DNA from: Acidimicrobiales bacterium
Lineage (GTDB): Bacteria; Actinomycetota; Acidimicrobiia; Acidimicrobiales; CATQHL01
DNA: 64,000 nucleotides
Direction: 5' to 3'
Assembly (NCBI GenBank): GCA_965209115.1
Contig: CBDBQD010000001.1
Coordinates: 1,274,483-1,338,482, forward strand
Positions 1 through 34,428 of this stretch are shown here, piece by piece (the stretch's first letter is position 1; every line of letters starts with the position of its first letter). The position numbers and the translations under genes were made by a program. Below the pieces are notes generated by a model. The model did not search any database. It was not told the origin of the DNA and saw nothing but the letters and a program-made list of their open reading frames with translations.

Positions 1-129
1 TCCGACGTAGCACCCGGAGTAGAGCAGGGACGCCGGAGCCAACGGACTCGGCCACTCAAACCGGCGCCTCCGCTTGTCTATCGAGCTCTACCACGAACCC
101 CGCGAGCCCATCCGTCGGGTCGCGTCCCC

Positions 130-32190: not shown

Positions 32191-32264
32191 GCCCCCGTAG
32201 CTCAGTTGGACAGAGCAGGGACCTCCTAAGTCCAAGGCCGCAGGTTCGAATCCTGCCGGGGGCG
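32191..32264 (+). tRNA. tRNA-Arg(CCT)
   Basis: GCCCCCG/CGGGGGC acceptor stem, GCTC/GAGC D-arm, CTCCTAA anticodon loop, GGTTCGAATCC T-arm; CCA not encoded. Confidence 0.95.
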
Positions 32265-32323
32265 CAGCTTCCCGACCCGTATTCGCACTAACGTCGGTCG
32301 CGTGAGATCGAGGAGCACTTCGA

Positions 32324-33160
32324 GTGGCCCCTGAGGCTTTGGCGGGTACCCCGTTCGGGACCGCGTTCATCCTCTGCGTCGCTATCGCGGCGGCTTGCTG
32401 GATTCTCTCGCTGCTGACGGGGGAGTTCTCCTGGGTGGACCGTGTGTGGTCGCTGGCCCCGCCCGCCTACTGCCTGATCGTGGCGGCCGAGCAGGGTTTC
32501 TCTTCCGCCCGGGTCAACATCATGACGGTGCTGGTCCTGATGTGGTCGGTGCGGTTGACGGCCAACTTCGCCGTGAAGGGCGGGTACCAGCCCGGTGGCG
32601 AGGACTACCGGTGGGCCTACATGCAGGGAAAACTCAGCAAGCTGCAGTTCCAGTTGTTGAACGTGACGTTCATCTGCCCCGGCCAGATGGCCATCATCCT
32701 CCTGTTCACCGCTCCCGTCCATCAGGCGTGGCTGCATCCCGACCAGCCGCTGGGGTGGCTGGACTACCTGGCGATCGTCGTGTTCCTCTTGTTGCTCGCA
32801 GGTGAGACCGTCGCCGATGCGCAGATGCTCCGCTTCCAGAAGAACAAGAAGCGGCTGCGGGATGCGGGAATCGAGGTCGACAAGCCGTTCATGGACGGGG
32901 GCCTGTTCCGGTTCAGCCGCCACCCGAACTACTTCTGCGAGATGGGGATGTGGGTGGTCTTCTACCTCTTCGCCATCTCCGCATCGGGCACGGTGGTGCA
33001 CTGGACGGGCCTCGGGTTCCTGCTGCTGATCGCGCTCTTCCAGGGCTCTATCAATCTCACCGAGGAGATCTCCGGCGGGAAGTACCCTGGTTACAGCGAC
33101 TACCAGGCCACTGTTCCCAGAGTGGTGCCGATTCCCCTGCGCAAGTTGGTGGGGAGGTAG
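32324..33160 (+). CDS. DUF1295 / steroid 5-alpha-reductase-like membrane protein
   Basis: SWVDRVWS, EDYRW, SRHPNYFCE. Confidence 0.88.
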   Translation: MAPEALAGTPFGTAFILCVAIAAACWILSLLTGEFSWVDRVWSLAPPAYCLIVAAEQGFSSARVNIMTVLVLMWSVRLTANFAVKGGYQPGGEDYRWAYMQGKLSKLQFQLLNVTFICPGQMAIILLFTAPVHQAWLHPDQPLGWLDYLAIVVFLLLLAGETVADAQMLRFQKNKKRLRDAGIEVDKPFMDGGLFRFSRHPNYFCEMGMWVVFYLFAISASGTVVHWTGLGFLLLIALFQGSINLTEEISGGKYPGYSDYQATVPRVVPIPLRKLVGR

Positions 33161-33231
33161 AGGGCTCCGGCCTCAGGTGCCGGAGGGCCGGCCTCCGCGG
33201 AGGCCTCCGGCGGGAACGGGCTCAGGGCGCG

Positions 33232-33870
33232 TCACTCCCGGGCGCGCCACGCCTCCAGGTCGGGGTCGACGGTGCGGTCGCGCTTGATCTCGCTGAAGTT
33301 CTCGTAGCGGGTCAGCCAGGCCGTGTGGTGCCAGAGGGCCACCGCGTCGTCGTCGTTGTCGGGCGGGTTGGAGATGACCGGCCCGAACGTGGCCGGCCCG
33401 TCGGGGCCGTCGACCTGGATCGTGGGGACGCCGAAGCTGCGGGTGCTGCTGGTCAGCCAGGTGTGCTCGGCGAGCAGCTTCTCCCAGGTCCCCGGGTCGG
33501 CCAGGGCGTCCGCCAGCACGCTCTCGTCGAGGCCGGCGTCACTCAGGGCGCCGGTGATGGTGGCGTCCTCCTGATAATCCTGCAGGCCGTCGAAGATGCG
33601 GTTGCCGATGGCGCCGTAGTAGTCGGCCATGGCCTCGTTGCCGAACCGGTCGCGCACGGCGATGGCGGTGCGCAGGGCCCTGACGCCGCGGCCCCGGTCG
33701 GGGTCGAACTCCTCCATGGGCTTCTCGAAGTTGATGATCGCAAGTGAGAACACGCCCCACTCGACCTCCACCACGTCCAGCTCGATGAGCCGCCGGACCC
33801 AGCGGAAGGTCTGGTAGCACCACGGTCAAACGGGATCGAAGTAGAAGCGGATGTGCTCGGGCTCGGCCAC
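33232..33870 (-). CDS. DsbA-like/Rv2466c-family oxidoreductase, predicted selenoprotein (UPWC)
   Basis: GGAGG RBS then GTG; FYFDPV-TGA-PWCYQ is in frame with the 33232-33774 ORF (FGVPT, FGPVIS, FSEIKR); SECIS-like hairpin 20 nt downstream of the TGA. Confidence 0.85.
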
Positions 33871-34024
33871 GGTTTCCTCCTGGGCTCCCATCCCGGCCGC
33901 TGCGGACGGGATGGCACCGGCAACGTTACTGGCGCTCCGGCCCGGCCTCGCGCCCGCCGCAGCGGCTGTGGTGTCGGACCGGGGCGGTGTGGCGCCAAGA
34001 GCGGGTCGGTAAACTCTGCGGGCT

Positions 34025-34261
34025 ATGTCTCGTGTCTGCCAGGTCACCGGGCGCAAGCCGTCGTTCGGCAACAACGTCTCGCACTCGCACCGCAAGACCC
34101 GCCGGCGCTGGAACGTGAACGTGCAGCGCCACCGCTACTGGGTTCCCAGCGAGAAGCGGTGGGTGACCCTGCGCGTCAGCGCCAAGGGAATGAAGACCAT
34201 CAACAAGCACGGCATCGAGAAGGTGCTTGCCGACATGCGACGCCGGGGGGTGAAGATCTGA
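34025..34261 (+). CDS. rpmB: 50S ribosomal protein L28
   Basis: MSRVCQVTG...GNNVSHSH...RVSAKG. Confidence 0.97.
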
Positions 34262-34428
34262 TGCCTGCGGGAAGCGACAAGCGGCCCATCATCAAGCTGG
34301 TGTCCACGGCGGGCACCGGTTACACCTACGTGACCACCAAGAACCGGATCAACCAGCGGGACCGCATCACGCTCAAGAAGTACGACCCGGTGGTGCGGCG
34401 TCACGTGGAGTTCAAAGAGCAGAAGTAG
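34261..34428 (+). CDS. rpmG: 50S ribosomal protein L33 (Cys-free type)
   Basis: [21 protein letters not shown]...[15 protein letters not shown]. Confidence 0.97.

Follow-up and report, generated by a model that had tools for sequence, protein, structure and literature searches.

A predicted selenocysteine form of an Rv2466c-type reductase in an Acidimicrobiales bacterium and its candidate distal SECIS element

The reductase gene and its in-frame UGA codon

The window analysed here is a stretch of 64,000 nucleotides from the genome of an Acidimicrobiales bacterium. Its minus strand carries a gene of the Rv2466c/mycoredoxin-2 family that is interrupted by a TGA codon (Table 1). The start codon is the GTG at 33870; behind the TGA the frame continues with PWCYQTFRW and stays open until the terminal TGA. 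The original prediction had described a GTG preceded by a ribosome binding site, the internal TGA at 33826-33828 and a frame running to 33232, and all of this was found as claimed, with AGGAGG 5 nt before the GTG and a product of 212 aa. The AGGAG upstream of the start is retained across the orthologues, many of which have TAA or TAG at or beside the position of the terminal stop. A contig from an independent study (X3) is identical over positions 32236-34350 (0 differences), which rules out a sequencing error as the source of the TGA. Genes similar to those of ribosomal proteins, which we take from their sequence to be rpmB and rpmG, lie at 34021-34428 (+), divergent from the start of the reductase gene. 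An rpmB-like gene is close by in 24 of 38 orthologue loci, among them that of the Cys form L043. A scan for promoters and terminators at the locus gave none.

Table 1. Features of the reductase locus (positions in the window; numbers with a plus sign are nucleotides after the UGA codon)
Feature	Position	Strand	Basis
Rv2466c/Mrx2-family DsbA-like oxidoreductase gene, 212 aa, active site D-P-V-U15-P-W-C18	33232..33870	-	ORF and profile search
Shine-Dalgarno sequence AGGAGG, 5 nt ahead of the GTG start	33876..33881	-	sequence, orthologues
TGA within the frame, at the position of the nucleophilic Cys; predicted Sec15	33826..33828	-	alignment, 18/18 orthologues found
True terminal stop TGA	33232..33234	-	read-through frame; orthologues
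P1, 5' strand GACCUUC, +15..+21	33805..33811	-	RNAalifold, shuffles, folds
P1, 3' strand GGAGGUC, +57..+63	33763..33769	-	RNAalifold, shuffles, folds
Proximal hairpin CCGCUG-GGUC-CGGCGG of the original prediction, +21..+36, inside the segment that P1 would loop out	33790..33805	-	sequence; not conserved
Distal SECIS-like hairpin AGUGGGG-CGUGU-UCUCACU, +65..+83, predicted SelB-binding site	33743..33761	-	conservation, folding
Loop of the distal hairpin, +72..+76	33750-33754	-	

In a Pfam search the read-through protein matched PF22234 (Rv2466c-like) with 89.8 bits (gathering score 27; E 3e-25) and PF01323 (DSBA) with E 1e-13. Residues 8-207 align with solved Rv2466c structures (E 4.5e-29), and the TGA faces the first Cys of DPLCPWC. 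This bears out the assignment of the TGA to the attacking Cys of the family motif. A search against NCBIfam gave no matching protein or selenoprotein model, and a single-sequence AlphaFold model was uninformative (pLDDT 36) and was set aside. When the genome was searched with this protein, it was the sole family member found, and no Cys paralogue was detected. Gene callers had been expected to split the gene in two; instead they omit the 14-codon head and retain a tail of 179-191 aa that lacks the active site.

The gene was found in 18 of the 21 genomes of the family, and all 18 have TGA at the motif; the three genomes without a match are only 74-77% complete. A search of 401 genomes of the order gave a match in 238 (a tally that includes the unpublished genome G161, on which nothing else here depends). 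Among the best 38 of these 238 matches, 21 have TGA, from families f1 (the family of this genome), f40 and f35, and 17 do not. The f35 Sec proteins are 47-54% identical to this reductase. The head codons, the ribosome binding site and the exact TGA are preserved in three families, down to 47% protein identity. At the protein level, the best 120 of 770 matches comprise 96 full-length Cys forms and 24 entries without the N-terminus; all 22 matches above 62% identity are N-truncated, and one has the NCBI name 'hypothetical protein'. A comparison of orthologues for Cys and TGA had been proposed, and it revealed both: TGA in the 18 family orthologues found, Cys in 96 of the best 120 relatives. On a quick tree the alternation of Sec and Cys among homologues requires 5-7 changes; this fallback tree was built on 71 rows after thinning of near-identical family rows, and of the 96 Cys proteins it contains 22.

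TGA forms also occur among distant members of the Rv2466c family (L189 in G241, L102, L144, L117, L091, L113, L178, L179 and L166), with the motifs UPFA, UPWA, UPWT and UPWC, so that Sec would be present in several branches of the family; some of these forms lack the resolving Cys. Three weak order-level matches listed with one TGA (G340, G156 and G144) were rejected as Sec forms, their active site having Cys. Further rows with one TGA likewise did not score as Sec in the hairpin and P1 comparison described below. A motif scan of metagenomes yielded 15 homologues among the 119 stretches listed, the remainder being chance or antisense matches. The labelled sequencing runs that contain this DNA are mostly sponge metagenomes. 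Close protein records come mostly from Acidimicrobiia/Acidimicrobiales MAGs, and a 100% identical protein is filed under Ca. Spongiisocius variivorans. In the RNA run X19 a relative's contig (about 91% alike) spans the gene, which, being a contig, gives no indication of expression.

RNA structures downstream of the UGA codon

Synonymous divergence is lower in codons 19-27 (+55..+81) than in any other section of the gene (0.088 versus 0.689; p 0.007, 20,000 column shuffles). Ser27 is encoded by UCA in 17 of 19 sequences, a codon that accounts for 2.8% of the Ser codons of the genome; UCA is found at the same Ser in 5 of 22 Cys forms as well. This region holds the distal hairpin, whose 9-bp form has a calculated energy of -8.7 kcal/mol. 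Its seven core pairs are kept in all 23 distinct rows, with one-sided, pair-keeping changes only. The hairpin shows no two-sided change and fails to beat shuffled alignments (460/500) because its columns are nearly invariant. In all 22 f1 and f35 genes it has the bSECIS shape, with a small apical loop (CGUGU), G within the first two loop positions and a stem of 7-9 bp. The loop has the N-GU-N'-N form of the hairpins located at +18..+22 in FdhA, AhpD, TlpA, SelW and Bcp of the same genome, which present GGUCU (FdhA, AhpD, TlpA) or CGUGA (SelW, Bcp). SelB recognizes G-U loops of this kind.

RNAalifold was applied to 24 Sec sequences that had been selected for possessing the distal hairpin. A second element, the 7-bp helix P1 between +15..21 and +57..63, surfaced unsought and ends one base before the distal hairpin. 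It is 96% paired and has three two-sided changes, which come from three sequences. In 500 shuffles the pairing was matched 0 times, the number of two-sided cells 5 times and the covariation score twice; these figures are not probabilities, since the structure was derived from the tested alignment and the sequences are related. In folds of +13..+99, P1 forms with probability 0.51-1.0 in 23 of 24 sequences, and the distal hairpin with 0.61-0.95 in 24 of 24. Distal hairpin and P1 occur together in 18/18 family genes and 4/4 f35 Sec genes, and in 0/31 Cys genes. The f40 Sec genes lack the distal hairpin (0/9), and 8 of these 9 have a canonical proximal hairpin that starts at +15 with its loop at +23. 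In 10 other Sec forms the distal hairpin was present once and P1 in this register never. Given the peptide, the chance of both elements is 0.011-0.018, and they are shared by two families that are about 50% identical. Rfam gave no SECIS match at the gene, only a chance-level result (E 2.8).

From conservation and folding, the distal element is probably the SECIS of this gene. An alternative is that the enzyme does contain Sec, while P1 and the distal hairpin do not constitute a SelB-binding SECIS and either have another role or are a by-product of the peptide, SelB then using a weak or unrecognized signal; slowing of the ribosome, shielding of the UGA from RF2 or an effect on mRNA stability may be such roles. 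In line with this, the hairpin is to a large part encoded by the peptide (it would arise by chance in 14.5% of cases) and lacks two-sided covariation, and P1-like pairing alone (at least 6 of 7 pairs) exists in 7 of the 31 Cys genes. In addition, the 587 aa SelB matched Pfam models for the GTPase, the barrel and a single winged helix, so that its RNA recognition is not established. However, the distal loop resembles the proximal SECIS loops of the same genome, and the element is missing both from all 31 Cys genes and from those f40 Sec genes with a canonical proximal hairpin, as one would expect of an alternative SECIS. Moreover, the EWGVFSL peptide also occurs in three Cys genes (L061, L291 and L302), none of which has the 7-bp stem. 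We therefore regard a role other than SECIS as unlikely.

The original prediction had assigned the SECIS to the hairpin with a GGTC loop that lies 20 nt after the codon. This hairpin is present in the DNA, and in this genome it fits the published model with regard to geometry: a G-first loop, a 6-bp stem, a spacing of 26 nt and -8.5 kcal/mol. If Sec insertion followed the standard bacterial model, the hairpin with its loop at +27 would direct it. Of 18 distinct family sequences, 10 keep at least 5 bp, and transient formation during translation is conceivable. Against this, the 6-bp stem is intact in only 3 of the 18, and in all three genes of the sister genus 2 bp are left and the loop reads GAUC. 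Only 67% of the cells are paired; Arg wobble positions in the 3' arm change without restraint, and the divergence of its codons reaches 0.89 of saturation. When the peptide is recoded at random with synonymous codons, the hairpin appears in 13% of trials, and the 59-nt proximal region folds no better than shuffled sequences (z +0.77). In the folds of +13..+99 its pairing probability is 0.0 in 24 of 24 sequences. Canonical bSECIS elements have their conserved apical loop 16-37 nt from the UGA; none was found there in this gene, where the conserved loop sits at +72. Because of its non-conservation, chance-level occurrence and lack of formation in the predicted ensembles, we discarded the proximal hairpin, which is probably not the SECIS; that it nevertheless directs Sec insertion appears quite improbable.

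Decoding of the UGA codon and comparison with known systems

The genome encodes a complete Sec machinery: selA (383 bits), selB (271), selD (356) and tRNA-Sec (selC, 64 bits) all score above the curated cut-offs. The search for these four genes had been named in advance as a check, and its outcome favours the predicted Sec form of an Rv2466c-like enzyme, as do the conserved TGA and the Cys/TGA alternation. The selD gene itself contains an in-frame TGA. A coding-potential screen of the genome returned at least 10 further genes of known selenoprotein types with TGA at a Cys position; the screen is threshold-based and others may escape it. Further apparent selenogenes of this genome are SelD, FdhA-like, Bcp, AhpD-like, SelW-like, WAxxUGC-like, a TlpA-like UGTC protein and two genes of the UGSC family.

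Relatives were also searched for selA, which was present in 30 of 30 other genomes with the active-site TGA. It was detected in 16 of 17 close Cys-form genomes too, so its co-occurrence excludes little, and with 51 of 53 hand-picked genomes positive overall we dropped it as a discriminating test. These 53 Acidimicrobiales genomes, in 51 of which selA is above the cut-off, represent 14 families and were picked for carrying this reductase family. Sec use looks widespread in the order.

Taken together, the comparative data indicate that the UGA of the reductase gene is very likely read as selenocysteine. It is very improbable that the UGA is a real stop, leaving a pseudogene or an internally started 180-aa protein without the active site: UGA is indeed the commonest stop in the genome (1332 of 1875 long genes), and for close relatives the databases contain only the 179-186 aa form, but head, ribosome binding site and exact TGA have been kept in three families, always in selA genomes, and the genome has no detected Cys paralogue. 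Decoding as Trp or Cys, by an altered code or leaky readthrough, is equally implausible, since prfB (RF2) is present above its cut-off, tRNA-Sec is the only tRNA of the genome with the anticodon UCA, and most genes, including this one, end in TGA. The presence of prfB and the use of TGA as the end of most genes imply that UGA is not globally reassigned and that its decoding must be site-specific.

For selenocysteine insertion we propose the following course. While the ribosome stands at the UGA, P1 would form just outside the mRNA entry and loop out 35 nt. The distal hairpin follows 1 nt past P1, and with P1 collapsed its loop would effectively be about 24 nt from the UGA, which falls within the consensus of 16-37 nt. 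SelB with GTP and Sec-tRNA would then bind the C-GU-G-U loop and deliver Sec. On the basis of the UGA at the nucleophile, the complete selABCD set and the P1-folded distal signal, we consider these three steps rather likely. By homology to Rv2466c and NCgl2478, Sec15 may attack mycothiol mixed disulfides or similar electrophiles and Cys18 resolve them, and mycothiol, Mtr and NADPH would re-reduce the enzyme. The product, with its predicted U-P-W-C active site, is likely to be a thiol-disulfide reductase that depends on mycothiol, and we incline to mycothiol as the electron donor. In the genome, mshD scores 183 against a cut-off of 163; mshA (383/462), mshC (415/485) and mtr (588/636) are under their curated cut-offs and far above the next paralogues.

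The DsbA-Mrx1 cluster is described as having the signature C-P-W/F-C with a nucleophilic first Cys (PMC8280269; PMC11841060). In Rv2466c, Cys19 is the nucleophile and Cys22 the resolving residue, and the protein is re-reduced by mycothiol (PMC11841060; PMC8280269). The reductase shares with Rv2466c/mycoredoxin-2 (PF22234; PDB 4ZIL, 4NXI, 5XUR) full-length similarity, the position of CPWC and the Gx-P-T segment, and like NCgl2339 and NCgl2478 of C. glutamicum, which belong to the cluster, it fits the signature, with Sec for the first Cys. It differs from Rv2466c in its UGA-encoded nucleophile, in sequence (about 35-40% identity, read off the alignment) and in its position in a separate Acidimicrobiales subclade. 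In mycobacteria, FDH is given as the sole predicted selenoprotein (PMC13449736). A selenoprotein form of Rv2466c was not found in the literature searched, which misses most subscription papers.

DsbA-like selenoproteins as such have been described. The DsbA-like family from the Sargasso Sea corresponds to COG2761 (PMC1088965), and Peng 2016 counted 45 DsbA-like selenoproteins (PMC5029168). Among the 119 prokaryotic selenoprotein families given in a 2026 review are two DsbA-like forms of PF01323, UxxC and DxxUP; PF22234 is absent from its accessible part (PMC13188914). Our reductase also hits PF01323, and DPVUPWC fits both the motif of form 1 (UxxC; COG2761) and that of form 2 (DxxUP). In contrast to these forms (representatives NIP15863.1 and MDP6049977.1), with which it was compared by description only, its best match is PF22234. 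The subfamily may already be within the published DsbA-like counts. The accessible text of a preprint on Acidimicrobiia selenoproteins (bioRxiv 10.64898/2026.04.03.716425) does not mention DsbA and states that Rfam models gave no SECIS.

The bSECIS model specifies an apical loop 16-37 nt after the UGA, G within its first two positions and a stem of 4-16 bp (PMC13188914). The distal element agrees with it in being a hairpin within the coding region with a 5-nt apical loop, G at position 2 followed by U, and a stem of 7-9 bp, and the base of the whole structure is at +15, as in the f40 proximal hairpin. It departs from the model in the position of the loop (+72 versus 16-37 nt) and in having 35 nt looped out by a predicted long-range helix. 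The SECIS is described as adjacent to the UGA in several publications (PMC12013277, PMC13449736, PMC11431864, PMC1794560), and one review restricts the bacterial element to 11 nt from it (PMC11431864). Atypical cases are acknowledged, in the accessible parts without description (PMC12013277, PMC13188914). A distal SECIS layout with a long-range helix was not encountered in the literature searched, which misses most subscription papers. DsbA-like selenoproteins are known already; neither the Rv2466c-like Sec subfamily nor the predicted folded-back SECIS layout was found in the literature searched.

On this evidence the locus is very likely a real, mis-annotated selenoprotein gene of known fold, and its predicted recoding signal is a variation of the bacterial SECIS. 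The selenoproteome would gain a reductase of the mycoredoxin-2 type, and a gene whose public annotation loses the active site by truncation is corrected. If the distal layout is true, tools that search for SECIS elements must scan a larger stretch, and proteins with internal Sec could be designed around a signal located farther downstream.

Similar layouts in other selenogenes of the lineage

An ArsC selenogene (UxxS) is located at G000:C2:1114681-1115040 (-) (L196; orthologues L227-L248). In all 18 parsed genes of 21 a 7-bp stem closes an AGUU loop at +47, and this hairpin region is the least diverged part of the gene (0.16 versus 0.66). In the sister genus, whose three genes place the hairpin at +47, +56 and +68, an A-U pair stands in place of G-C; the genes with +56 and +68 carry insertions. 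An upstream spacer helix was present in 14 of 15 folds (15 of 22 loci given); it is 84% paired and has two two-sided changes. A glutaredoxin-like selenogene with the motif TPTUQECC lies at G000:C1:1204710-1205030 (+) (L198; orthologues L272-L288) and stays under all NCBIfam cut-offs. TGA is present in 17 of 17 matches and a GU-loop hairpin at +47 in 16 of 17, with a divergence of 0.09 versus 0.82 and one compensatory change; here the upstream spacer helix was seen in 9 of 9 folds (9 of 16 given). In SelD a GU-loop stem sits at +33; the strict motif is found in 6 of 19 genes, the remainder having mostly GUU, and a 4-bp helix at +13..25 was recognized by eye. We also considered a GGUC hairpin at +51 of Bcp as a distal SECIS and rejected it: orthologues do not conserve it, and what Bcp does conserve is a proximal element at +22.

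These observations raise the question of a 'bypass' class of SECIS elements in Acidimicrobiia, in which a helix starting at +13..+17 absorbs codons and the GU-loop follows at +33 (SelD), +47 to +68 (ArsC, glutaredoxin-like) or +72 (reductase). We judge the existence of such a class to be an even call. The layout of the ArsC and glutaredoxin-like genes is supporting, not decisive, because GC-rich RNA folds readily, the V-E-F-D peptide favours a palindrome and the comparison was made without Cys controls. A specific covarying layout would account for at least three genes of a single lineage whose SECIS breaks the model. If the class is real, the residues after Sec are freed from RNA constraints, and many selenoprotein genes without a consensus SECIS would be explained; Sec could then be introduced into proteins while the codons around the active site stay as they are.

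Some further in-frame TGA codons were noted in the genome. At G000:C1:886657 (+) (L203) a TGA lies 13 codons into a possible head (PPDC-TGA-GST) whose reading frame is that of an ABC permease for branched-chain amino acids (PF02653); the head may belong to a selenoprotein not yet listed, or the upstream frame may be open by chance. The TGA at G000:C2:476035 (-) (L199), seven codons ahead of a lipoyl/biotinyl-domain protein (STAG-TGA-AVLEV), probably belongs merely to an upstream frame. The genome also contains a coding-like frame in triplicate, at G000:C2:1985581 (+), 586911 (+) and 608130 (-), each copy with an identical internal TGA (PDWRH-TGA-AFVT); the copies look like a transposase, as we presume, that was multiplied together with its stop.
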